Source of the DNA: an uncultured Bacilli bacterium
GTDB taxonomy: Bacteria; Bacillota_I; Bacilli_A; RFN20; CAG-449
Length of the DNA stretch: 64,000 bases
Direction: 5' to 3'
NCBI GenBank assembly: GCA_947591215.1
Contig: CANQCZ010000005.1
Span: 1,630 to 65,629, forward strand
In this document: in pieces, positions 24,419 through 38,792 of the stretch
Layout: each line of letters opens with the position of its first letter
Position numbering within the stretch: position 1 is the stretch's first letter
Made by a program: the position numbers and the translations under genes
Notes under the pieces: generated by a model
Databases searched by the model: none
What the model was told of the DNA's origin: nothing
Seen by the model: the letters and a program-made list of their open reading frames with translations, nothing else

Positions 24419-26014
24419 ATGAATGATATTATTAGAGAACTTACAATAGACGTATCAAAAGAAAATATTTTCTCAGCTATCTTAGCTAAACAATATGATA
24501 AAAATACTCGTTATATTTTAGCTACAATTACTAATCTAGGTAAAAAAATTGACGTGGATAGAAATAGTACAGTTATTATTAATTTTAGACGTCCTGATAA
24601 AGAATCTCATTCGTTTATCGGATCTGTTGAAGAAGATGGAAGAGTAAAAGTTCCTATTCCATATTGGGCGCTCGAAATAAATGGAGCAGTAACTGCGGAT
24701 ATTTCAATGTGTATGGCAGACGAAAGATTAACTACATTAAGGTTTATTATTCAAGTTGAAGAGGCGACGTTTAATGGGGCTACACCTATTATTACAACTT
24801 CAAAAATATATGGTGTTTCAGGTATCGGCAATGAAAATCCTGTTTTAACACGTACTAATGACGCTGTAGGTGTTTCTTTATCAGTTACGGAACGTGATAT
24901 TTACAAAGAGTGTGTTGCCAATGATGTTGATTTTCAAAAATTTTTCGACTTTCCACAATACACCGATGAATTAGGCAATGTTTTCATCACAATTACACCA
25001 AAGTCATTTAAGATTGATTTCACTAATGACGGGGAAATTACTGCTATTAGCGTTAAAGAGTATGAACGTGGCGATGAAAATCTTGGTTTCTTTGTTCACC
25101 CATTCTTTAAAAAATGGACATCTGAAACTACATATAATGGTGTTGTATCGAGAGATATTGCTAAATATTTGTCATCGGCTTACGACAAAGTCAATGGCGA
25201 GGTATTTGAGGGTAGTATTAGTGAATCAAATAAAAATAATATAGTAGTTAGATCCGTACCAAATGAAGATTATACTAAATCTTCTGCTTCTTGGGAGCTT
25301 GGAAGAGAAGTTATTAAAAACACGAACGAATCATACGGAATTATGTCATGGTTATTTATTGATTTGTTTAGAACATTATGTCTCATTTATTTTGCAAGAA
25401 CCGATTTAAATAATTTATTTCATATTGAATTTGAATATAGTGATGACGAATACTCGAGACAGTACGATCCTCTTGAACACGGAACTACAACGGGTGCAAC
25501 AGATGATATCGATTCTCACACAGGATATAATACTGAAACACACCAATTTAAAATTTTTAATATTGATGACGCACTTGCCTGTATAACAGTAGATGGTTGC
25601 TACCAAACAAAAGATGGATTTTATTATTCATATTTATTTGATTTTGACGCTTCTAAAGATGTTGGAGCACATAAATCAATGTTATCAACAAAAGTAACAA
25701 GTTATGATGGCGAATACGATATTATTACTAAAATGAGTTATGACATCGACGAACCCGCATTTAAAGTTGCGACAGCTATGCGTCATGCAACCAACACTAA
25801 TCCTGTTGATAGTGTGCAAAATATTTACTATTCTGCTAAACACAAACTTTACATAATAGAAGACGATTCACGCGGACAGTTATATTCTTTTGCTTGGTCT
25901 AACTATGACGTATACCCTGATTGGGGGGTCTTCTTCTCGTTTTGGGATAGCGGGTTCGTCTACTGTTGGGACAACGACAGCAACGCCGTCCGCCTTTGCA
26001 AATCACCTTTTTAA
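24419..26014 (+). CDS. DGR target protein 1: distal tail fiber / receptor-binding protein with a C-terminal variable C-type-lectin-like region
   Basis: C-terminus ...DWGVFFSFWDSGFVYCWDNDSNAVRLCKSPF. The 3' 80 nt make up VR1, which matches TR. Confidence 0.7.
   Translation: MNDIIRELTIDVSKENIFSAILAKQYDKNTRYILATITNLGKKIDVDRNSTVIINFRRPDKESHSFIGSVEEDGRVKVPIPYWALEINGAVTADISMCMADERLTTLRFIIQVEEATFNGATPIITTSKIYGVSGIGNENPVLTRTNDAVGVSLSVTERDIYKECVANDVDFQKFFDFPQYTDELGNVFITITPKSFKIDFTNDGEITAISVKEYERGDENLGFFVHPFFKKWTSETTYNGVVSRDIAKYLSSAYDKVNGEVFEGSISESNKNNIVVRSVPNEDYTKSSASWELGREVIKNTNESYGIMSWLFIDLFRTLCLIYFARTDLNNLFHIEFEYSDDEYSRQYDPLEHGTTTGATDDIDSHTGYNTETHQFKIFNIDDALACITVDGCYQTKDGFYYSYLFDFDASKDVGAHKSMLSTKVTSYDGEYDIITKMSYDIDEPAFKVATAMRHATNTNPVDSVQNIYYSAKHKLYIIEDDSRGQLYSFAWSNYDVYPDWGVFFSFWDSGFVYCWDNDSNAVRLCKSPF
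25924..26003 (+). repeat. DGR variable repeat VR1
   Basis: Aligns base-for-base with 26121-26200. About 10 mismatches, all where TR has A. The 3' end ctttgcaaa is shared with VR2 and differs from TR (atctgctaa), consistent with IMH versus IMH*. A GC hairpin taaggggtgtcccctta lies at 26024-26040. Confidence 0.8.
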
Positions 26015-26120: not shown

Positions 26121-26200
26121 TTGGGTCTTCTTCTCGAATTGGAATAACAGGTTCAACAACTGTTGGAACAACGACAACAACGCCGTCCGCATCTGCTAAT
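26121..26200 (+). repeat. DGR template repeat (TR)
   Basis: Non-coding copy of the VR sequence, rich in adenines, between the target gene and the RT. Confidence 0.8.
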
Positions 26201-26322
26201 AGATGTATTAAAAATTATGCAATATAATTCCTTACCTCTTGGTAAAAAGTAAATTCATAAAAGGCGTTGGCTAGTAGTGAAATATCGAACATCAACGAAG
26301 AATTAGCAAAGGAGTTGAAGTA

Positions 26323-27342
26323 ATGAAAACAATTAAAAACCTTTATAGTAATTTACTCTCAAAAGAGAAAATAAAATTAATTCTTTTAAAGAGTATCAAA
26401 GGCAAACCGTATGCTTTGAAAATTCAAAACAATGTTGACGAATATGTTAACCTTACTTATGAACATTTAGTAAATGAAACATACGACTTAAAGCCTGTAA
26501 AAAAAGTTATAATTCATGATAGAAAAAAAGATCGTGAAATAACGAAAAGTCCTTATTATCCTAATAAAATTTTTGATTATTTAATTGTCAGTCAATTAGA
26601 AAGCATGATAACAAAATCAATGTTTCATTGGTGTATTGGTAATGTTAAAGGACGTGGAAAAGATATCGGGCTATCTTACTTAGAAAAACACATGAAAAAT
26701 TACAAGTATGCTTTAAAACTCGATATTAAAAAATTCTATGATAACATAGATAAAAAAATCTTACTGAATCTTTTGTCAAAAAGAGTTCATGACAAAAAAT
26801 TTCTCAATTTTTATAGTAAGGTCGTCGGTCAAGATGGAAAAGGACTTGACTTAGGGCTTAATTCAAGTCAATGGCTTTCCAATTTTTATCTTCAAGGATT
26901 AGATTATTATATCAAACAAACATTAAAAGCTAAAATATACGTCCGATATGTAGACGATATGATAATTTTAGGAAACAACAAGCGCCGTCTTCATTATTAT
27001 ATAAGAGCGATTCAAGATTATTTATACAAAAATTTAGGATTACGGCTAAAAGAGAATTATCAGCTGTTAAACCTCACTAAAAACGATCAAATAGAATTTT
27101 TAGGATATAAGTTAACACCAAAAGAAACCACTCTTATTAAGCCATTGTTTTATCGTTTCGTGAGGTTATATAAGAGAATGGGTGATAAGTCTAAAAGACG
27201 TGCTAAAACTCTTGTATCATTGTGGGGTTGGTTTAAACGATCTACTTATTCTTATGTTTATTATAAAAAGTATCTTGAGCCAATTATACCATTTAAAAAT
27301 ATAAGAATGTTATTACAAAAAAGGAGGAAAAAATTAGCATGA
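26323..27342 (+). CDS. DGR reverse transcriptase
   Basis: RT motifs, including YVRYVDDMIILG (YxDD box). Size 339 aa. Immediately downstream of TR. Confidence 0.85.
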   Translation: MKTIKNLYSNLLSKEKIKLILLKSIKGKPYALKIQNNVDEYVNLTYEHLVNETYDLKPVKKVIIHDRKKDREITKSPYYPNKIFDYLIVSQLESMITKSMFHWCIGNVKGRGKDIGLSYLEKHMKNYKYALKLDIKKFYDNIDKKILLNLLSKRVHDKKFLNFYSKVVGQDGKGLDLGLNSSQWLSNFYLQGLDYYIKQTLKAKIYVRYVDDMIILGNNKRRLHYYIRAIQDYLYKNLGLRLKENYQLLNLTKNDQIEFLGYKLTPKETTLIKPLFYRFVRLYKRMGDKSKRRAKTLVSLWGWFKRSTYSYVYYKKYLEPIIPFKNIRMLLQKRRKKLA

Positions 27343-27956
27343 AAATAAATGATGTTATTACACAAAGTTTTAAAAAACAATTAATCGAAAATCTTAATAA
27401 AATTGGTATTACTACTTCTAGTATTGAATGTATTTTGCTTGAGGGAAGTGCGTTATATCTACAACAACCGAACGATATTGATTTTAAAGTAATACTAAAA
27501 CGTTATTTCAATAAAGCAGAGATGAGAAGATGTTTTTTCATCAATGGTTATACGGTTGAATGCGTTTATTACACATTTGATGATTGGGCGAATGTAACTA
27601 AATATAAGTCAAACGCTCAATATATCGTTGAAAGTAAAGACATGATTTGTATTTATGGTAACGATTCAAAATTTTTTAGATATGATGTTGTTACTAATAA
27701 AGAATTGCAAAGCTATATTATAAATGTCTATGATAAACTTTTTTTCAATTATAAAGAAAACGATAAAACTAATAAAATGAGCGACAAGCGGTTATGGAAT
27801 TTTCTATTATTTGCATTCAAATTACAAAATAATGACGATAATTTATCAGACGAGCAATTAGAATTGTTACAAAAAGCACATGATTTGGAATTAAACAAGG
27901 AAGATTATTTACCTTTATTTAATGAATTAAAAGAAAGAATTTTAATTACATCATAA
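27339..27956 (+). CDS. Nucleotidyltransferase-fold protein, translationally coupled to the RT. Possible DGR accessory or moron gene.
   Basis: The ATG overlaps the RT stop (ATGA). Minimal NTase motif LEGSALYLQQPNDIDFKV (GS-x9-DxD). Confidence 0.4.
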   Translation: MKINDVITQSFKKQLIENLNKIGITTSSIECILLEGSALYLQQPNDIDFKVILKRYFNKAEMRRCFFINGYTVECVYYTFDDWANVTKYKSNAQYIVESKDMICIYGNDSKFFRYDVVTNKELQSYIINVYDKLFFNYKENDKTNKMSDKRLWNFLLFAFKLQNNDDNLSDEQLELLQKAHDLELNKEDYLPLFNELKERILITS

Positions 27957-28695: not shown

Positions 28696-29483
28696 CGACG
28701 AATTATTATTCCTAATGTTAAATACTTAAAAATATAAAGGGGTTCGTATAAATTATCAAATGCCCCGCCAGGAAATAGAATCTCGTTCTATTATAAGAAA
28801 TAATAGAGCGATTTTTTATTTTTATAGCACTTTCGTGGTAGTTCGTTAACTTTGTAGACCATAGAATTTTTTGGGAATTTATCAAATTAATAATTTTAAA
28901 GTTTTTTAATTAAAAAAATAGGCTTTGTTTTTGTAAAGTGATAGTTTAGGGTCATATAGAGTTTGAACCCTATCGTGTATTATGGGTTTGAACTTTTTAA
29001 GATAAAAAATATCTACCAAAATTGAACTTTGATAGATGATTTTTTCTATTTAAGCATGAATGACAATCCTAAATTCACATGTAAATATTGTGGCTCTTTC
29101 CTTATAAGTAATTGTTCCTTTAAATAAAGATATGTTTGTTTCGTTTAACAGGTATCATTTTAGAAAATAGATCTCGAAAAGAAATGTCGAACAAATCATT
29201 AATATTTTTGCTTTGTTTAATGATAGAAACATATGTCGAGGGGTTATCTATTATAGAAGAATTAACGTTTTGTGTTTGGATTTTTGATAATTCTCTCATT
29301 AGTTCTTTAACTTTAAGGATGATGCTTTATTTTATTACTAAAGAAAATACACTTGTGTGTTCTTCCAATATTATACTTTTTAATATGTTCAAGAGGTTCT
29401 TTGAGTTTTATTGACAAATTTAACGTATATGTTAATATTTTTAGCGGTACTAAAAATCAAATTATCGGATGGAGGGTTTTGGT

Positions 29484-30923
29484 ATGAGAATTGATTTAAA
29501 AAATTATGATAAGGAAACTGAATTTAAAGAAATAATTGATGAGTATATTTTTCCATTATTAGGAATGAAAGGAGATAATATTCAAAAAATTCCTGATAAA
29601 GATAGTTTCTTTAAAAATACGCATAATGAAATTATTTTTTTTGAGAAACAAAAAATTTATTTTTTACCATATAAAAATTCGAAATGGGGATATTTTATTG
29701 ATACAGTGAAATGTATGAATAATTTTAATTTTACATTATGCAGGAAAGTATTAGCAAAATTAGTTTCGGTTGCCAATAATAATTTAAAGATTGGCACTCA
29801 AAAAAATTTTAAGTATATAAACGAGCAGCAGTGCATTTCTAGCTATGAAGTTGCGGTTCAAACTTCAATATGTGAATACTTAACAAACAATAATTCAGCT
29901 GATAAAAATGATACTATGAAAACTTTGCTGAATTTATTAGACAAATTACAAAAGTGGGCTTTAAAAACATATGAAGGAAAAAAAGTTCCTTTTGGTTTTG
30001 TAATTGATATGAAGGAAATCTCTAAAACAAAATTAAACTATTTGGAATTTTTGGGCGATGAATTTTCGGCTACTATTTCTGATGGTATTTCTTCAGTAGT
30101 AGTTATTGATAAATATGGTAATTATCTTGATTATAAATCTATTGTAGAAAATAATAAAATTAAAGCTTGTCAGTTGAATAATTGTTTGCCTATTCGTTTT
30201 GCTCAAATAATAAATGAAAATGTAAGCGAAAATTCATTAAGAATAGGTGTTTTTCTTTTGACAGGCGGAGATATTTTCATCGCAAAAAATGGCAAAATAG
30301 ATTTAATAAAACGTAATGGTAGGTGGGCTAATTTTTCTTACCAAAGCTTTTTAAATGTTATGGAAAGATATAATAATACTGAGGATATTGATAAACAAAT
30401 TTTGATGGAAGTTTTTTCGAGTGCTATTGATGTATCATTATCTCATTGTGGTGGAATTATCGCGATAGTAAAGGATGGAATGGAATTGAAGAATTCAGAA
30501 ATGGAATCGAAGGATGCAGAAAAAGAAAATATTCTTAGCGAGTGTGATAATCTTCTTGTTTCTAAGAATGATGATGAGCTTAAAGATGCACTTAGCAAAA
30601 AAGAAAATGAATATAATATTAATAAACGGCTTTATAAAAGAAATATGATTAAAAATTTATTAAATGGTAAGAAATTATTTATAAATATAGATAGAAAATT
30701 GAGAGCTGAATTAATTGGTTTAGATGGTGCAACAATTATTCAAAAAGATGGTTCGGTTGTTGCGTTCGGTGCTATTATTCAAAATGAAAAAGGATCAACC
30801 GGTGGAGGAAGAGGAGCGGCAGCTAAATTGTTATCTAGATATGGCGGTTTTGCAATCAAAATTTCAACAGATGGTTACATTGAAGTATATATGAATAGGG
30901 AATTGAAATATTATATTAAATGA
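29484..30923 (+). CDS. Uncharacterised 479-aa protein whose C-terminal region has degenerate DAC (DisA_N)-like motifs
   Basis: RBS GGAGGG 7 nt before the ATG at 29484. C-terminal GLDGATIIQKDGSVVAFGAII...GSTGGGRGAAAKLL resembles the DGA...GTRHRAA core of diadenylate cyclases, but the RHR motif is not conserved. Two upstream degenerate copies of the DG-x-hhI-x-DG hairpin motif. Confidence 0.3.
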   Translation: MRIDLKNYDKETEFKEIIDEYIFPLLGMKGDNIQKIPDKDSFFKNTHNEIIFFEKQKIYFLPYKNSKWGYFIDTVKCMNNFNFTLCRKVLAKLVSVANNNLKIGTQKNFKYINEQQCISSYEVAVQTSICEYLTNNNSADKNDTMKTLLNLLDKLQKWALKTYEGKKVPFGFVIDMKEISKTKLNYLEFLGDEFSATISDGISSVVVIDKYGNYLDYKSIVENNKIKACQLNNCLPIRFAQIINENVSENSLRIGVFLLTGGDIFIAKNGKIDLIKRNGRWANFSYQSFLNVMERYNNTEDIDKQILMEVFSSAIDVSLSHCGGIIAIVKDGMELKNSEMESKDAEKENILSECDNLLVSKNDDELKDALSKKENEYNINKRLYKRNMIKNLLNGKKLFINIDRKLRAELIGLDGATIIQKDGSVVAFGAIIQNEKGSTGGGRGAAAKLLSRYGGFAIKISTDGYIEVYMNRELKYYIK

Positions 30924-30976: not shown

Positions 30977-31005
30977 TTGACGTATATCTTTATTTGTGCT
31001 ACAAT
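30977..31005 (+). promoter_or_regulatory. Sigma-A-type promoter: TTGACG, 17-nt spacer, TACAAT
   Basis: Hexamers read directly at 30977-30982 and 31000-31005. No ORF downstream. Confidence 0.5.
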
Positions 31006-31011
31006 GTTTTC

Positions 31012-31140
31012 ACTTGAAAGGTGATATAACATCGCGTGTTAATATCAGATTAGCTGTTAATCGTTTGATTAATAGTTAAGTACAACAAATAAGTATTATT
31101 TGTTAAAAAGCCCGGGTCCAATTGGAACTTGGCTTTTTTT
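31012..31140 (+). ncRNA. Candidate small non-coding RNA, about 130 nt, between the promoter and a T-rich terminator
   Basis: Promoter at 30977-31005. Imperfect hairpin aagcccgggtccaattggaacttggctt, then T7 at 31134-31140. No ORF longer than 6 codons. Confidence 0.3.
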
Positions 31141-31527: not shown

Positions 31528-32523
31528 TTATTTAACAGAAATTTTATTATATGCTTTATTGGCAAAGTAATAATAATTCTTTAATGAATTAATTATTTTA
31601 TTTGGAGATAGTACGATTGCGTGTTCGCCAAAACGTCTAAAGTATTGTTCTACTTGAGCGTATGAGCAAGAGAAGTAATAAATATCTCCCTCGATTTTAG
31701 AACATTGAGGACGATATAAATATATTCTTTTAAACAGTTCTTTTCCTGTTGGAGTTAGTTGTACTTTTATTTCTTCGTTTTCATAAGGTTTAATTGAATA
31801 TTGAATTCCATATTTTATTTGCTTATTAAATATCTCTTCTTGATGAGGTAAAATTTCTCTTTTACTTGTAAGCAAAATGACATCTTTTATTTTGGCTAAA
31901 CGAACTGTATGTAATATTCCGTTTTCAGCGACAAAAAGACCATAGTTAAATAATTCATCTTTAGATGAAGAAATCGTGTAAAGAGAAGCTTCATTAATTA
32001 CTGCTCCAGAAGTTAAAGATAAATATACTTTCACATTACTATCTATTGATTTAGATAATAATGCATAGTTTTGTTTAAAGATTATCCTTTCTCTTTCTGG
32101 TTGGACTTTAGAAGCGTATGAAGTGAATAATCTTCTAAAGTAAGAAGAGATTGATTCGGTTTTTACAAAGTTATTTAAAATAAAATAAATTGCTTTTGAT
32201 GAGATCTTTGTTGGCTTAAATAAGAAAGAAACCGATTTATTACTTTGATCAACAGATGAATTCTTTTTATCAATTACTTTTACTAGTTTATGATATACTT
32301 CTTCCTTTTCTTCATCAGAAATATTTTTTATCACGCTAAAAACATCTAATCTAAATTTATCATCGAGTGCGGAGAACTCTTCATAATAATTATTTATTAA
32401 TGTGTTAATGAATAAGTTTCTATTAAGATTATTTTCTCCCTTATAAAATAAAAAGTTTTCACAGTCTTTTAATAAAATATTGTATGTGTTTAAATCTAAA
32501 GTTACTTTAATTTTTTCTTCCAT
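31528..32523 (-). CDS. Putative WYL/WCX-domain regulator (BrxR/CapW-like C-terminal half)
   Basis: C-terminal GDIYYFSCSYAQVEQYFRRFGEHAIVLSPNKI resembles the WCX domain. The preceding ENGILHTVRLAKIKDVILL region resembles a WYL-type barrel. No clear N-terminal HTH. Confidence 0.35.
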   Translation of the reverse strand: MEEKIKVTLDLNTYNILLKDCENFLFYKGENNLNRNLFINTLINNYYEEFSALDDKFRLDVFSVIKNISDEEKEEVYHKLVKVIDKKNSSVDQSNKSVSFLFKPTKISSKAIYFILNNFVKTESISSYFRRLFTSYASKVQPERERIIFKQNYALLSKSIDSNVKVYLSLTSGAVINEASLYTISSSKDELFNYGLFVAENGILHTVRLAKIKDVILLTSKREILPHQEEIFNKQIKYGIQYSIKPYENEEIKVQLTPTGKELFKRIYLYRPQCSKIEGDIYYFSCSYAQVEQYFRRFGEHAIVLSPNKIINSLKNYYYFANKAYNKISVK

Positions 32524-32686: not shown

Positions 32687-34861
32687 GTGAGCAAAATGAA
32701 AAAAGAGTTATTAATGAAATTATTATCAAAAGATTATTTGGTCTTAAATTTTTCTTCTAAAGTAAATTTTAATAGCCAATTAAATATTGATTTAATCAGT
32801 GCGATTGATCATTCTTTTAAATCGTTAGGTTTTAAGATTAAAGATGAAGAATTAATTAAATTAATATCTATATCTCGAGATGATTTAACATCTTTTTATC
32901 ATGATAACTATAAGTTATTATCTTCGTTTGTTGGAAATAGTGTTAAACATAAGATTTTCTACGCTAATTTTCCTGAGATATCCAATATACCAGAGAAAGA
33001 AATGTATACTCGTGCTTTTTTACATTATTTAACTGCATCGGAAAATGATGATGGTTTTATGTCTCAAGATATAAATGATTTTGAACGTGAAGAAGTTCAT
33101 TCTGATAACAAAGTAATCTTAAAACTTATTAACGAACAAGAAGCAAACAAAATCCTTATTGATTTAGTAAGGGATATGTTTGAATCGAAACAAGCGATAT
33201 CTTGTGATGAAACAAACTTTATCTTATCTTGCTTTCAAAATCTTTTTGATAAGGAAAGTTTATATTATTTGATTGATGATATTCCTTTTAAAGAGAATAT
33301 TGCTATCTATGTAAATACAATAAGAAAGCTATATCCTAATGAAACTAAATTGGGTGACATTTTCAATGAAAAAATTCTTTCTTTTATTAAAACTCCAACT
33401 GATTTACTAAGAGTGTATGCGATTATTTCAAATGGTGATTATACTTTAAATGATAATAGTATATTTATCTCACTTGATAGAAAGTGTCGTCGATTATTTT
33501 TAGCAATATTAAACAATATGTGCGCTAATAAAGATTATGTCTACGATGACTTTTCAAGACATGATTTTTTATGGAAAAAAGCATTTGAAAAACTTCATGT
33601 TGGTGAATATGAAAAACAATATCCTCATATCTATTTAGTATGTAAAAATATTAGAGAGGATAATTATTCTACATATTATTCGATGCTTGAAAAGAATAAG
33701 AATAATCAAGTGGGTTTGATATCATTATTACGTAAAAGACCAGGAGAATTTGCTCGTAGATTAGATATGCTTTTACGCAATGCATCTTTTGAAACTGAAT
33801 ATACACTTCAAGAGTTTGAAAAAATTGCTGATCAAGTATCCTCTAATGTTTTGTTACAATTATATACATTCTTTCAAAATAGAAATCTTTATTCTACTCG
33901 TATTTTTTGTATCAAAAAATTATACTATAACAGTTATATTGAAGTAGAGGATAAAAGAGATGATATTCCGGACTATACTATTGAAAGAATATGTGCAATA
34001 ATTCTTAATGCATTGAAAAATATTTATTCATCTTATCCTAGAATAGAAAATGTCTATTTAGACGAATCGATGAAAAATTATGCAATGCCTATGAATTCAC
34101 GTAATAAATCAACAGGAAATAAGACGCTTACTTTTGGTACGAGAATAAAATTAGATGAAGAAGACGGATCATTTATTCGTTTCTTTACTCATTGGAAAAA
34201 TATGAATGAAGGAAATGGTAAACGTGTTGATATTGATTTATCGGTTGAACTTGTAAATGAAGATTTTACATCTACAAGAAGTGTATCATGGCACGATTTA
34301 TTTGGTGGTAGAAAATTTGATACATACCATTCAGGTGATATTGTTACTGCACCAAATGGAGCAAGTGAATTCGTTGATTTAGATTACATTAGTGCAAGTA
34401 AATATTATCGTTATGGTGTGATTTGTAATTACGTTTTCACGGGACAAAATTTTTGTGATATACCAGAATGCTTTTCTGGCGTTATGTTTATGAAAAAGAA
34501 AGGGAAAAGAGGTGTAGTTTTTAATCCGGAATTTGTTAAGTATAAGTATGACTTAACCCAATATGGATCAAGTGAGAATATTGCTTTGGCAATCGATTTT
34601 AAAACTCGTGAACTTATTTGGATGGATATACCTCGTTCAAGTGGTAGAATGTATCAAATTGCAAGTGGTGATAGCGGAGTAGTTATTGCATTAAAAAATG
34701 CTTTAAAAAAGCAAATGAATATGTATGAATTTATTAAACTACATTCATCTCATTTAACCTTTGTAGATGATATATCACAAAGTGAGTTTATTATCTCTGA
34801 CAAAGAGAATGCGACATTGAAACCATATGATGTAGAAAAAATAACTGCATCATGGTTATAA
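32687..34861 (+). CDS. Large uncharacterised protein (724 aa) with a C-terminal TerD-like domain
   Basis: Residues from about 480 to 610 align block-wise with TerD (IRFFTHWKN / GKRVDIDLSVELV / VSWHDLFGG..YHSGDIVTAPNGASEFVDLDY / YRYGVICNYVFTG). The Ca-binding GDGDDE motif is degenerate (PNGASE). Confidence 0.45.
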   Translation: MSKMKKELLMKLLSKDYLVLNFSSKVNFNSQLNIDLISAIDHSFKSLGFKIKDEELIKLISISRDDLTSFYHDNYKLLSSFVGNSVKHKIFYANFPEISNIPEKEMYTRAFLHYLTASENDDGFMSQDINDFEREEVHSDNKVILKLINEQEANKILIDLVRDMFESKQAISCDETNFILSCFQNLFDKESLYYLIDDIPFKENIAIYVNTIRKLYPNETKLGDIFNEKILSFIKTPTDLLRVYAIISNGDYTLNDNSIFISLDRKCRRLFLAILNNMCANKDYVYDDFSRHDFLWKKAFEKLHVGEYEKQYPHIYLVCKNIREDNYSTYYSMLEKNKNNQVGLISLLRKRPGEFARRLDMLLRNASFETEYTLQEFEKIADQVSSNVLLQLYTFFQNRNLYSTRIFCIKKLYYNSYIEVEDKRDDIPDYTIERICAIILNALKNIYSSYPRIENVYLDESMKNYAMPMNSRNKSTGNKTLTFGTRIKLDEEDGSFIRFFTHWKNMNEGNGKRVDIDLSVELVNEDFTSTRSVSWHDLFGGRKFDTYHSGDIVTAPNGASEFVDLDYISASKYYRYGVICNYVFTGQNFCDIPECFSGVMFMKKKGKRGVVFNPEFVKYKYDLTQYGSSENIALAIDFKTRELIWMDIPRSSGRMYQIASGDSGVVIALKNALKKQMNMYEFIKLHSSHLTFVDDISQSEFIISDKENATLKPYDVEKITASWL

Positions 34862-35301: not shown

Positions 35302-36021
35302 ATGAAGTTTAATGAAAGGCTAAAAGCATTAAGAAAAACGCATAATTTAACACAAGTTGAACTTGCGAAAAGATTATATGTTAGTCGTTCACTGGTTGCA
35401 AGATGGGAATATGGCGATATTTATCCAACAATTGCTAATCTTAATAAAATTTCCGATTTTTTTAACATTCCCATGAGCGATATTTTGAGTGAAGATGAAA
35501 AAACCGAAATAATAGTTCGTCAGGCAAACTTAGAGAAAAAAATAAAAAATGGATTAAGAATCACTATGAATTTTGTTAATTTCGCTTTGTCTTTGCTTAT
35601 TTTATCAATCTTTTTTCCATTATTGCCGATATGGGGATACACTCATGAAATAATTACGAGCACGGAACCTTTATTAAAGATTACAATTACTGAACAAGAT
35701 TTATTTAGGGTTTTAAATGATACTTTTTATAATACTGGATTAAAAACAGCATACGTCTTTATCATGATTTTAGAAATTATTTCATTAATAATTTCTTTAT
35801 TTTCATTAGTAGTTTCATTCTTAAGAAAGAAACAAAAATTGAGTTGTTTTATATTTATGATAAGTTGTTCTATTAACATTATTCTTTCTTTGCTTATTTT
35901 TTCAAGTTTTATTGCAAAAAGGCCTTTAAATATTATTGGTGGTTTTTTCCTATTCTTATTAGTGTTATTAGCAATCATATCATCTATTTTTATTGCAAAA
36001 CAAAGGAAAGGAAATTTATAA
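35302..36021 (+). CDS. Membrane-anchored XRE-family HTH regulator (paralog 1)
   Basis: N-terminal HTH_3 pattern LKALRKTHNLTQVELAKRLYVSRSLVARWEYGD, then 4-5 hydrophobic TM segments. Confidence 0.6.
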   Translation: MKFNERLKALRKTHNLTQVELAKRLYVSRSLVARWEYGDIYPTIANLNKISDFFNIPMSDILSEDEKTEIIVRQANLEKKIKNGLRITMNFVNFALSLLILSIFFPLLPIWGYTHEIITSTEPLLKITITEQDLFRVLNDTFYNTGLKTAYVFIMILEIISLIISLFSLVVSFLRKKQKLSCFIFMISCSINIILSLLIFSSFIAKRPLNIIGGFFLFLLVLLAIISSIFIAKQRKGNL

Positions 36022-38153: not shown

Positions 38154-38792
38154 TTGGCAATGAAGTTTAATGAAAAATTAAAATCATTAAGAAAAGAACA
38201 TAATCTTACTCAAGTTGAACTGGCGGAAAGTTTATATGTCAGTCGGTCACTGGTCGCAAGATGGGAATATGGCGATATTTATCCCACGATAGAGAATCTT
38301 AATAAAATATCATCTTATTTTGATATTCCGATAGGCAATCTATTATGCGAAGATGAAAAAACAGAAATAATAGTTCATCAAGTAAACTTGGAAAGAAAAA
38401 TAAAGAAAGTATTGAGAATATCATTGCTAACATTGATTATAGTTTATTCAATTGTCATGCCAATAGTATATTGTTTAAAGGTATTTTCCATTACCGGATT
38501 TGGCTATTTAGGAAACAATTATACAAGTAGCGAGATAGATTTTAATGTTTTTCATTATTCAGTTGTAGATTGTATTTTGCCTGAAGATTCATGGTTATTA
38601 GTCGTCTCACCATTGACAAATTTAGTATTAATTATTTTGGCTATTTTAGCTTTTAGTTTAAAAAGAAAAAGAATAAAAAATATTTTAATATTTGTTACCA
38701 CTATTTTATTTATTGTTTCATTGGTTTTTGTCATTTTGACATTTGTGCTTGGCACAAAGCATCCGATTGGAATTCTTCCAAAATTCATGTAA
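38154..38792 (+). CDS. Membrane-anchored XRE-family HTH regulator (paralog 2)
   Basis: The N-terminal 75 aa are about 80% identical to paralog 1. C-terminal TM segments. Confidence 0.6.
   Translation: MAMKFNEKLKSLRKEHNLTQVELAESLYVSRSLVARWEYGDIYPTIENLNKISSYFDIPIGNLLCEDEKTEIIVHQVNLERKIKKVLRISLLTLIIVYSIVMPIVYCLKVFSITGFGYLGNNYTSSEIDFNVFHYSVVDCILPEDSWLLVVSPLTNLVLIILAILAFSLKRKRIKNILIFVTTILFIVSLVFVILTFVLGTKHPIGILPKFM

Follow-up and report, generated by a model that had tools for sequence, protein, structure and literature searches.

A diadenylate cyclase-fold protein family and its linked small RNA in gut Bacillota

What is the role of a protein that resembles a nucleotide cyclase at its C-terminal end, lacks the RHR motif of that enzyme and matches no annotated family? 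The question is raised by a gene at positions 29484 to 30923 (+ strand, stop codon included) of a 64,000-nucleotide (nt) stretch of DNA from an uncultured Bacilli bacterium (GenBank assembly GCA_947591215.1, contig CANQCZ010000005.1, positions 1,630 to 65,629 of the forward strand), hereafter the window. A sequence-only reading of this stretch had likened the C-terminal end of the encoded 479-residue protein to the diadenylate cyclase (DAC) core. Here, we describe the predicted fold and active site of the protein, a structured small RNA (sRNA) that follows its gene, and the family to which both belong, and we ask which mechanism would best account for them.

A predicted DAC fold with a remodeled active site

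The open reading frame (ORF) is intact and translates into 479 residues, as the sequence-only reading had it. A GGAGG stands 8 nt ahead of the ATG at 29484, and no such site precedes the in-frame ATG that lies five codons farther upstream (29469); a promoter-like sequence, TTGACA-16-TAATAT with a TG, lies at 29411 to 29438 (+) and was identified by its match to the consensus alone. The protein has no match in Pfam (none at E ≤ 1), NCBIfam, PADLOC, or PHROGs, and no match among PDB sequences was found by phmmer with the protein or by hmmsearch with the family profile. Homologues of equal length, 291 in number, align with it end to end, and a precomputed Pfam domain is present in none of them. 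An alignment of 51 homologues (35 to 59% identical) served as the basis for the invariant columns given below and for an AlphaFold2 model of the protein, which has a mean pLDDT (predicted local distance difference test score) of 90 and a pTM (predicted template modeling score) of 0.88.

Searching the PDB with this model by Foldseek returned only DisA chains at ranks 1 to 14 (probability 1.00, E of 9.7e-4 to 2.8e-2), from Mycobacterium tuberculosis, M. smegmatis, and Thermotoga maritima; the next match had an E of 1.0 and a probability of 0.03. The alignments cover 171 to 188 columns at ∼13 to 15% identity for 13 of the chains and 89 columns at 20% identity for 7y0d_A. A separate model of residues 1 to 300 yields no DisA in the same search, and the DisA match therefore maps beyond residue 300. 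For comparison at the profile level, DAC reference profiles were built from CdaA and DisA segments checked against PDB entries 6hvl, 8ogk, 3c1y, 7y0d, and 9y4s, with 120 DisA homologues added. Using hhalign, the C-terminal profile of the close family matched the DisA/CdaA profile with a P of 1.7e-4 over 95 columns, and a profile broadened by 55 distant relatives matched it with a P of 7.4e-5 over 87 columns; as a yardstick, DisA and CdaA match each other by phmmer with an E of 1.6e-4. Among the relatives, the sole recurrent Pfam match is DAC, seen below threshold in 3 of the 51 close relatives (best E, 1.6e-4) and in 13 of the 55 distant ones (best E, 1.2e-5). In the model, then, residues 296 to 479 (30369 to 30920, +) adopt the DAC fold, and the resemblance is far above chance. 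The likeness to the DAC core that had been read from the sequence is borne out by fold search and by profile comparison, the latter in the expected register, and no unrelated fold was matched with confidence: DisA alone rose above the noise.

The remainder of the protein can be divided into two modules. An N-terminal module, residues 1 to 160 (29484 to 29963, +), has a predicted α/β secondary structure with two long helices, and its boundary adjoins an invariant W158 ... T162-Y-E-G165 motif. A middle module, residues 161 to 295 (29964 to 30368, +), contains hairpins at residues 199 to 215 and 260 to 275 and conserved P236-x-R238-F239 and G262-D263. Within the DAC-fold domain, an insertion of ∼50 to 70 residues (about 330 to 400) carries a conserved basic pair, K385-R386. 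Invariant columns in the N-terminal and middle modules are W158, T162-Y-E-G165, D200, F239, and G262-D263; those in the C-terminal domain are D316-V-S...H321.G323-G324, D414-G-A416, G429-A-I, G437-S438, G441-G-R443, A446, S461, D463-G-Y465, and K479.

How does this domain compare with DACs at the active site? All hhalign alignments share one register, in which L413-D414-G415-A416 (30720 to 30731, +) falls on M-D75-G-A, the DGA catalytic motif of T. maritima DisA. A Gly-rich loop, G437-S-T-G-G441-G442-R443-G-A-A446 (30792 to 30821, +), stands in place of G-T-R-H-R-T: residues G441 to A446 fall on G106-T107-R108-H109-R110-T111, so that G442 is equivalent to T107, R443 to R108, G444 to H109, A445 to R110, and A446 to T111. 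Farther on, I460-S461-T-D463-G-Y465 (30861 to 30878, +) aligns S461 with S127 of DisA, the conserved Ser of the VS(R/E) motif of DisA and CdaA. In CdaA structures, the second Glu of the VSEETG sequence has a metal-binding role. D463, at Ser+2, occupies the position of this Glu (CdaA sequence checked against PDB 6hvl).

The sequence-only reading was right that the RHR motif is not conserved. In the window protein it is replaced by G441-G442-R443-G444-A445, with only the first Arg retained, and none of 120 relatives has an RHR. What the relatives do have is uniform: [LM]DGA is present in 118 of the 120, GS.GGGRGAA or a one-residue variant in about 110, and [IV]STDGY in 115. The signature DGA ... 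GS..GGR.AA ... KIS.DG is kept even in 55 relatives that share just 25 to 45% identity, and the most conserved positions of the family are the active-site equivalents themselves (D414, G415, A416, S438, G441, G442, R443, S461, and D463).

A precedent for such a site is offered by PanS, the minimal DAC of the Panoptoo/PanDA antiphage systems. PanS proteins make 3′3′-cUA and/or cyclic di-AMP (c-di-AMP), have conserved "DGF" and "GGR" motifs, and lose their product when either motif is mutated (10.64898/2026.08.10.743927, 10.64898/2026.08.10.743972). EcPanS has G104, R105, and A108 where DisA has T107, R108, and T111, and its D68A and R105A variants are inactive (10.64898/2026.08.10.743927, 10.64898/2026.08.10.743972). 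Since active PanS has a GGR and the corresponding residues are nearly invariant in the window family, inactivity does not follow from the loss of RHR. A working rather than a decayed nucleotide site is favored because the active-site equivalents are the best-conserved part of a very large family. As judged from these alignments, the C-terminal domain is probably an active, remodeled DAC-fold nucleotidyltransferase. Of the two options "divergent or inactive" that had been left side by side by the sequence-only reading, divergence is supported by the fold search and the profiles, and inactivity is weakened by the conserved site and the PanS precedent.

The opposite view takes the C-terminal domain for a DAC-like sensor of c-di-AMP or another nucleotide that has lost its catalytic activity, with the output in the N-terminal modules. 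It would explain why RHR is incomplete (R-G-A), why the Thr equivalent is Gly and why Pfam DAC matches stay below threshold, and degenerate DAC-related domains do exist, as the DACNH domain of CdaG, described without catalytic residues, illustrates. A dead site would hardly be expected, however, to keep the DGA Asp, the Arg, the Ser and the acidic Ser+2 residue (nearly) invariant across a very large family, and PanS indicates that DG(x) and GGR are enough for cyclase activity; we consider a dead sensor quite unlikely.

The three peptides quoted in the sequence-only reading as DAC-like hairpins map to residues 199 to 215, 260 to 275, and 412 to 461. Both upstream segments are indeed β-hairpins in the AlphaFold2 model (strands 204 to 208/213 to 219 and 264 to 268/271 to 277), but their likeness to DAC is not above chance. 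The model of residues 1 to 300 matches neither DAC nor any other fold in the PDB (best Foldseek E, 0.89), nor one in BFVD. When close-family profiles were compared by hhalign, self-comparisons stayed at chance (P of 0.03 to 0.34); for the N-terminal, middle, and C-terminal subprofiles against each other and against DAC, the full range of P was 0.03 to 0.65. With the broadened profile, the middle domain (161 to 295) aligned weakly and colinearly with the protein's own C-terminal domain (P of 0.013 over 80 columns) and, at a P of 0.16, with DAC. Both weak alignments have a colinear register that places S199-D-G on the DGA hairpin, P236-x-R-F on the start of the GGR helix, and G255...G262-D on K-I-S-T-D-G, so that the second upstream hairpin pairs with the last (STDGY) hairpin of the DAC-like domain and not with the DGA hairpin. 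The middle domain may be a degenerate internal duplicate of the DAC-like domain, a lead taken from this profile register.

These comparisons also bear on the proposal that three DG-hairpin units form an unrecognized, nucleotide-binding repeat fold. The model does contain three DG-containing β-hairpins, and the colinear middle-to-C-terminal similarity could be read as a trace of repetition. Yet the C-terminal unit belongs to a complete DAC fold and is not free-standing, the second upstream hairpin aligns with the wrong partner for a simple repeat, close-family self-comparisons are at chance, and the model of residues 1 to 300 matches nothing. A repeat fold is thus extremely improbable, and we reject three repeats as a demonstrated fact, given the weak hhalign P values and the absence of a fold match for residues 1 to 300.

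A small RNA downstream of the gene and in a phage

We compared the 450 nt 3′ of the stop codon across the loci of the family. Within this distance, otherwise unrelated loci share short blocks of identity, and most related loci have a near-consensus TTGACA-17-TATAAT promoter downstream of the gene, followed by similar sequence. In the window, a consensus-matching promoter (TTGACG-17-TACAAT with a TG; 30977 to 31005, +) begins 54 nt past the stop codon and precedes a predicted structured sRNA, which we call class I, at 31014 to 31139 (+). The sRNA scores 88.7 bits (E of 7.9e-18) with a covariance model, R1, and is the sole full-length R1 match in the window; its minimum free energy fold equals the consensus structure (z of −4.47). 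No terminator was found between the DAC-like gene and the sRNA promoter in the window, so the gene transcript should also read through the sRNA. The sRNA is the most informative feature of the locus, and it lies outside the coordinates covered by the sequence-only reading.

From 5′ to 3′, the RNA consists of an AAAGG leader, a long hairpin P1/P2, AGATT, a hairpin P3 of variable length, AAGCA(C/A)GGCA leading into hairpin P4, ACAAAA, and an intrinsic terminator (about 31105 to 31140, +) that forms its 3′ end. Its length is ∼105 to 135 nt across loci, and the single-stranded linkers between the hairpins are conserved (AAAGG, AGATT, and AAGYAC...ACAAAA). From a MAFFT alignment of nine diverse copies, RNAalifold derived four helices and 34 pairs; compensatory double changes are seen in 25 of these pairs. 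Among 30 aligned matches, 94.8% of cells are paired, against 71% in shuffled alignments and 37 to 48% with slid partners, and 32 of the 34 pairs show double changes, counts that come from a model-fitted alignment and are favorable to the structure for that reason, which tells against them; the independent MAFFT/RNAalifold result agrees with the structure.

With R1, 25 matches pass E < 1e-6 across the 442 kb of locus sequence, and all but one of them lie on the gene's strand. Primary copies have the orientation of the gene without exception and start 40 to 137 nt past the stop codon (24 measured loci). A second model, R2, adds two loci and brings the total to 25 of about 34 distinct close-family loci with the sRNA after the gene. 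Three loci have two copies, in tandem or convergent: L011 (8509 to 8624 and 8679 to 8791), L042 (678 to 785, +, and 797 to 903, −), and L051 (7823 to 7938 and 7682 to 7768). Rfam 15 has no family for the sRNA, even at E ≤ 10 on short segments; the best overlapping matches reach 9.5 to 19 bits against gathering scores of 40 to 100, which rules out a known RNA family at permissive thresholds. On the strength of its covariation and placement, the RNA is a dedicated sRNA with its own predicted promoter, tightly linked to the gene in the window clade.

Other RNAs may accompany other members. L001/L029 and L014/L021 have no class I RNA by covariance model, yet in the first 150 to 250 nt after the gene they retain a strong promoter and sequence conserved within each pair. 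L001 and L029 share blocks such as TATAATTGAGTA ... GAGATGTGTCATCT; L014 and L021 share one of 70 nt at 91% identity. The retained promoter and mutual conservation suggest other RNA classes, and further classes linked to the DAC-like family may thus exist. The distant branches L045, L046, L048, L049, and L054 to L056 have no R1 or R2 match; the long gap after P0326 is RNase P RNA by its sequence signature.

The sRNA is also found without the gene. Exact-pattern scans for the RNA subclade of the window gave one match in IMG/VR and three in metagenomes, and the pattern for a second RNA subclade gave none in IMG/VR. One of the metagenome matches is an ordinary gene-plus-RNA locus (L051). Two contigs, one from IMG/VR and one from a metagenome, represent a single ∼73-kb phage with a full class I RNA of 88 bits (L050, IMGVR_UViG_3300045988_173844, 917 to 1032; L053, UMCA01036361.1, 3035 to 3150). 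No DAC-like gene is near this RNA in the 7.5 to 14 kb retrieved around it; it sits after an unrelated 307-amino-acid ORF, and a terminator hairpin is upstream in place of the consensus promoter. The phage RNA is 97.5% identical over 121 nt to that of the bacterial locus L011, with unrelated flanks. Another orphan class I RNA (L052, ERZ1643246 NODE_356, 1355 to 1467; 90.9 bits) follows genes that appear by eye to be yqeK/rsfS-like housekeeping genes, and its contig also bears a DAC-like gene of another subclade with its own divergent RNA. The full-length copies seen away from the gene are limited to the phage orphan and this one housekeeping-site orphan.

What could such an RNA do for a nucleotidyltransferase fold? 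It might be a cofactor or a substrate: the DAC-fold domain would turn its 3′-OH-on-α-phosphate chemistry on the RNA, for instance to nucleotidylate or extend it, or need it as a scaffold or specificity element, making the protein an RNA-dependent effector. The strict linkage of gene and RNA, the independent strong promoter, and the two RNA copies in L011, L042, and L051 would suit this role, and so would the conserved single-stranded AAAGG, AGATT, and AAGCA-GGCA segments, as possible protein contacts or reactive sites, and the remodeled phosphate-binding loop with a conserved basic insertion beside the active site. Against it, a phage would have no obvious gain from carrying the cofactor of a host effector, and the 3′ end of the RNA is an intrinsic terminator of the ordinary kind, with a variable "guide" segment missing. 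We know of no DAC-fold enzyme that acts on a polynucleotide. On balance, an RNA cofactor or substrate appears unlikely.

Family distribution and a candidate mechanism

The C-terminal-domain profile, searched against 1.84 billion cluster representatives, identified 1,178 proteins at E ≤ 1e-3, of which 605 reach ≤1e-10 and 129 reach ≤1e-30; the family thus comprises at least 1,178 clusters at 50% identity. Full-length members have 400 to 600 residues with the domain at the C terminus and retain the N-terminal motifs TYEG, AP.RF, and NGEILIF; members with names, drawn from 2 of 10 clusters queried, are all "hypothetical protein." The close family was found by pattern at 29 loci in 185,579 GTDB species genomes (one genome per species). 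All hosts are uncultured gut or rumen Bacillota: Anaeroplasmataceae, "Mollicutes"/Acholeplasmatales, Bacilli, Oscillospiraceae, Ruminococcaceae, and Christensenellaceae.

The genomic position of the gene differs in nearly every species. No conserved protein partner emerged from all-versus-all ORF clustering of 44 loci (about 34 distinct) or from a Pfam/PADLOC census of 150 neighbors; the most widespread neighbor family is present in at most 6 of the 44 loci, and those are same-species duplicates. Defense genes stand beside some of the loci, including Gabija, an SLFN/AlbA-ATPase gene, and a TIR protein together with an EcoRI-type restriction-modification (RM) system and a transposase, and the census adds Lamassu LmuB, SoFic, ThsA, PDC-S04/S46, reverse transcriptases (RTs) of the defense (DRT) type, and methyltransferases. 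RM systems and integrases also occur among the neighbors. The family is large, mobile, and defense associated, with no Pfam, NCBIfam, PADLOC, or PHROG model.

In two unrelated loci of distant branches, a gene for an SLATT_5 (PF18160) membrane protein adjoins the DAC-like gene (L049, 64 to 747; L056, 2226 to 2882), upstream in one and downstream in the other; one of these loci is from a Pseudomonas metagenome-assembled genome, and the SLATT_5 gene of L056 adjoins an integrase and an M78/helix-turn-helix (HTH) pair. Burroughs and colleagues reportedly predicted in 2015 that SLATT proteins are effectors of nucleotide-signaling systems. The SLATT_5 pairing in sister branches would fit a conflict-system role for the superfamily.

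A more prosaic explanation takes the protein for a c-di-AMP cyclase paralogue with an ordinary housekeeping or regulatory role in gut Bacillota/Mollicutes and the RNA for an unrelated sRNA or a 3′ untranslated region/terminator element. c-di-AMP signaling is well known in Bacillota, to which the hosts belong, and several loci are situated between housekeeping genes, examples being rplS, a Mur ligase gene, efp, and ackA. A housekeeping role does not account for the patchy distribution (29 loci in 185,579 species genomes), for a position that varies almost by species, or for the frequency of defense genes or mobile genetic elements as neighbors; nor would a mere 3′ element be expected to have its own consensus promoter and, in addition to the terminator, three hairpins that covary, to stand in this place in 25 loci, or to be seen full-length elsewhere only in a phage and at one housekeeping-site orphan. 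We regard this explanation as very unlikely.

We tentatively favor, with somewhat less than even confidence, an RNA-controlled module in which the three-domain DAC-type enzyme and the downstream structured sRNA act together, probably in defense or in a toxin-antitoxin-like manner. Like PanS, DisA, and CdaA, the enzyme would condense nucleoside triphosphates, its product being c-di-AMP or a nucleotide related to it, cyclic or linear, and its unrestrained activity would be harmful or growth arresting. The abundant sRNA made from the consensus promoter would bind and restrain the enzyme, with the basic insertion or the N-terminal modules as possible contact sites. Shutoff of host transcription by a phage, or degradation of RNA, would free the enzyme and infection would abort, and a phage that brings its own sRNA would escape. 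What speaks for neutralization of a toxic protein by the RNA is the linkage of the two genes and the phage-borne copy. For ToxIN, it is established that a phage, ΦTE, can mimic the antitoxin RNA with its pseudo-ToxI (PMC3475682). An RNA-restrained enzyme is the simplest model that covers the DAC fold, the conserved site, the mobile family, the sRNA, and the phage copy.

A bolder version of the RNA-restrained enzyme would make the locus a member of a new class of RNA-controlled abortive-infection/toxin-antitoxin module, in which a DAC-fold cyclase with a GGR site like that of PanS serves as the "toxin," a dedicated sRNA that phages captured as a counterdefense serves as the "antitoxin," and sister branches use an SLATT effector instead of the RNA. 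This is less likely than not, but its chance is substantial.

Several observations weigh against RNA control of an active enzyme. The direction of the RNA effect (inhibitor, cofactor, or substrate) is conjectural, and a cyclase product, if any, is putative for every member of the family. The RNA is single, nonrepeated, located downstream, and under its own promoter, unlike type III antitoxins, and 8 to 9 close-family loci have no class I RNA by covariance model. At the active site, the equivalents of H109 and R110 are Gly and Ala and the Thr ahead of the Arg is Gly, so phosphate binding must differ from that in DisA and CdaA. DACs require a head-to-head dimer, which is putative here. Neither the window protein nor any relative attains the Pfam DAC gathering score, and the hhalign probabilities are 49 to 62% (run without the secondary-structure term). 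Among deposited phage genomes, blastn found the RNA in none, and a single record, a fragment, has the gene. Many loci lie amid housekeeping genes such as those named above, and PADLOC has no model for the DAC-like protein.

In the window itself, the DAC-like gene comes after prophage tail, diversity-generating retroelement (DGR), and holin-like genes. It lies in a low-GC block at 26 to 40 kb (25 to 29% GC); phage structural genes have 32 to 35% GC, and core genes, from about 42 kb, have about 40%. The block has the look of an accessory island of mosaic make-up, located where the prophage ends or past that point; the window has no tRNA gene, and no att repeat was identified among the direct repeats reported for 6000 to 38500.

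The DGR is complete. Its template repeat (26123 to 26200) and a variable repeat (25926 to 26003) at the 3′ end of a 531-amino-acid tail-fiber-like ORF are 83% identical, with differences almost all at template adenines; an Rfam RT-18 RNA (26233 to 26314; 43.3 bits, gathering score of 41.3) and the RT ORF (26323 to 27342) follow. A second variable repeat lies 20 kb away at about 5930 to 6010, at the end of an ORF at 5180 to 6016, and one GC hairpin (AAGGGGTGTCCCCTT) follows both variable repeats (also at about 6017 to 6050). Because the template repeat, variable repeats, and RT-18 RNA make up a complete DGR, the adjacent RT belongs to a phage DGR and can be ruled out as a DRT partner. A 205-amino-acid ORF at 27339 to 27956 (+) that overlaps the RT stop codon has no match in four family libraries and may be a DGR accessory gene.

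Downstream, a 724-amino-acid protein (32687 to 34861, +) matches NF041916, the MXAN_6230/SCO0854 RING-domain family, with an E of 1e-76, below the cutoff, and phrog_33734 with an E of 2.6e-48; the divergent gene for a 331-amino-acid protein (31528 to 32523, −) has a weak WYL-like match (PADLOC, 1.1e-5). This pair may be another accessory or defense module in the low-GC block. None of these neighbors (the RT, the 205-amino-acid ORF, the WYL-like protein, or the 724-amino-acid protein) recurs beside homologues of the DAC-like gene. Two paralogous genes at 35302 to 36021 and 38154 to 38792 encode HTH-plus-multi-transmembrane proteins. A direct repeat of 261 nt (82% identity, copies 2.86 kb apart) makes up the 5′ parts of the two genes, with a similar 34-nt element ahead of each.

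Comparison with known systems

DACs were long regarded as housekeeping c-di-AMP synthases, and their use in phage defense was reported only in 2025 and 2026 (CBASS-DAC, a form of the cyclic oligonucleotide-based antiphage signaling system, and Panoptoo/PanDA). A literature search on DACs in defense found only CBASS-DAC/DS-2 and Panoptoo/PanDA, and one on DAC-like or DisA-like proteins found nothing relevant. With the present locus, the superfamily gains a third branch, far larger than these two and unannotated, that is common in Bacillota of the human gut and the rumen and has the unusual GGR site of PanS in another architecture.

PanS proteins, as described in preprints of August 2026, are ∼150 residues long, consist of a DAC domain only, and are paired with the 2TM-β effector PanE; they are found mostly in Pseudomonadota, often adjoining CBASS. 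The window protein shares with them a DAC fold in a setting of defense genes and mobile genetic elements. By the residue equivalences stated in that work, G442, R443, and A446 match the G, R, and A positions of EcPanS, and the Asp and Arg essential in PanS have counterparts in D414 and R443. Unlike PanS, the window protein has 479 residues, a conserved N-terminal region of ∼300 residues, and a ∼50- to 70-residue insertion in the DAC domain; it has DGA where PanS has DGF. No 2TM-β (S2TMβ) partner or other recurrent protein partner was found among the 44 loci and 150 neighbors, and the family is found in gut Bacillota, linked to an sRNA.

With DisA and CdaA (PF02457), the window protein has in common the fold, the DGA motif, the Arg of R108, the conserved Ser, and the order of strands and helices around them. 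It differs in having no RHR (His is replaced by Gly, the second Arg by Ala, and the preceding Thr by Gly), in lacking the linker and helix-hairpin-helix domains of DisA and the membrane anchor of CdaA, and in a genomic context that is variable rather than that of a conserved housekeeping gene.

CdaG, or DS-2C (DefensePredictor DS-2, Liu-DS2), is a DAC of ∼550 to 575 residues from CBASS-DAC operons, and its DACNH domain was reported to be very distantly DAC-like and without catalytic residues. Both proteins are multidomain and defense associated, with a C-terminal DAC after two uncharacterized N-terminal domains, and the window protein, too, may have a degenerate DAC-like middle domain, a weak likeness. 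In contrast to CdaG, the window protein and its relatives have no Pfam DACNG or DACNH match, and whereas CdaG operons have a cGAS/DncV-like nucleotidyltransferase (CD-NTase) and a phospholipase or 2TM-β effector, no CBASS genes were seen among the census neighbors.

The coupling of a protein gene to a dedicated structured noncoding RNA, on mobile genetic elements and in defense islands, recalls the type III toxin-antitoxin systems (ToxIN, CptIN, and TenpIN), and a phage with its own RNA copy recalls the ΦTE pseudo-ToxI (PMC3475682). Type III toxins are endoribonucleases, and their antitoxins are short tandem repeats that lie upstream, are cotranscribed, and are processed by the toxin (PMC5086642, PMC8860590). 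The protein studied here is DAC-like, with no Pfam, PADLOC, or NCBIfam match to the ToxN/AbiQ/CptN/TenpN toxins, and its RNA is a single multihairpin molecule of ∼105 to 135 nt, downstream and with its own promoter; in a repeat search over 6000 to 38500, the 790 nt ahead of the gene (28696 to 29483) showed no array of tandem repeats. With a protein other than an RNase, and with a lone RNA that lies downstream and is transcribed on its own, the locus does not count as a type III member for us, and we say only that it works perhaps like one. The family is a new large branch of the known DAC superfamily, and its pairing with an sRNA is undescribed. The combination of a nucleotide-cyclase-fold protein and a dedicated sRNA that a phage carries alone has not been described before; if our reading is true, nucleotide signaling would here be linked with RNA-based control or antagonism.

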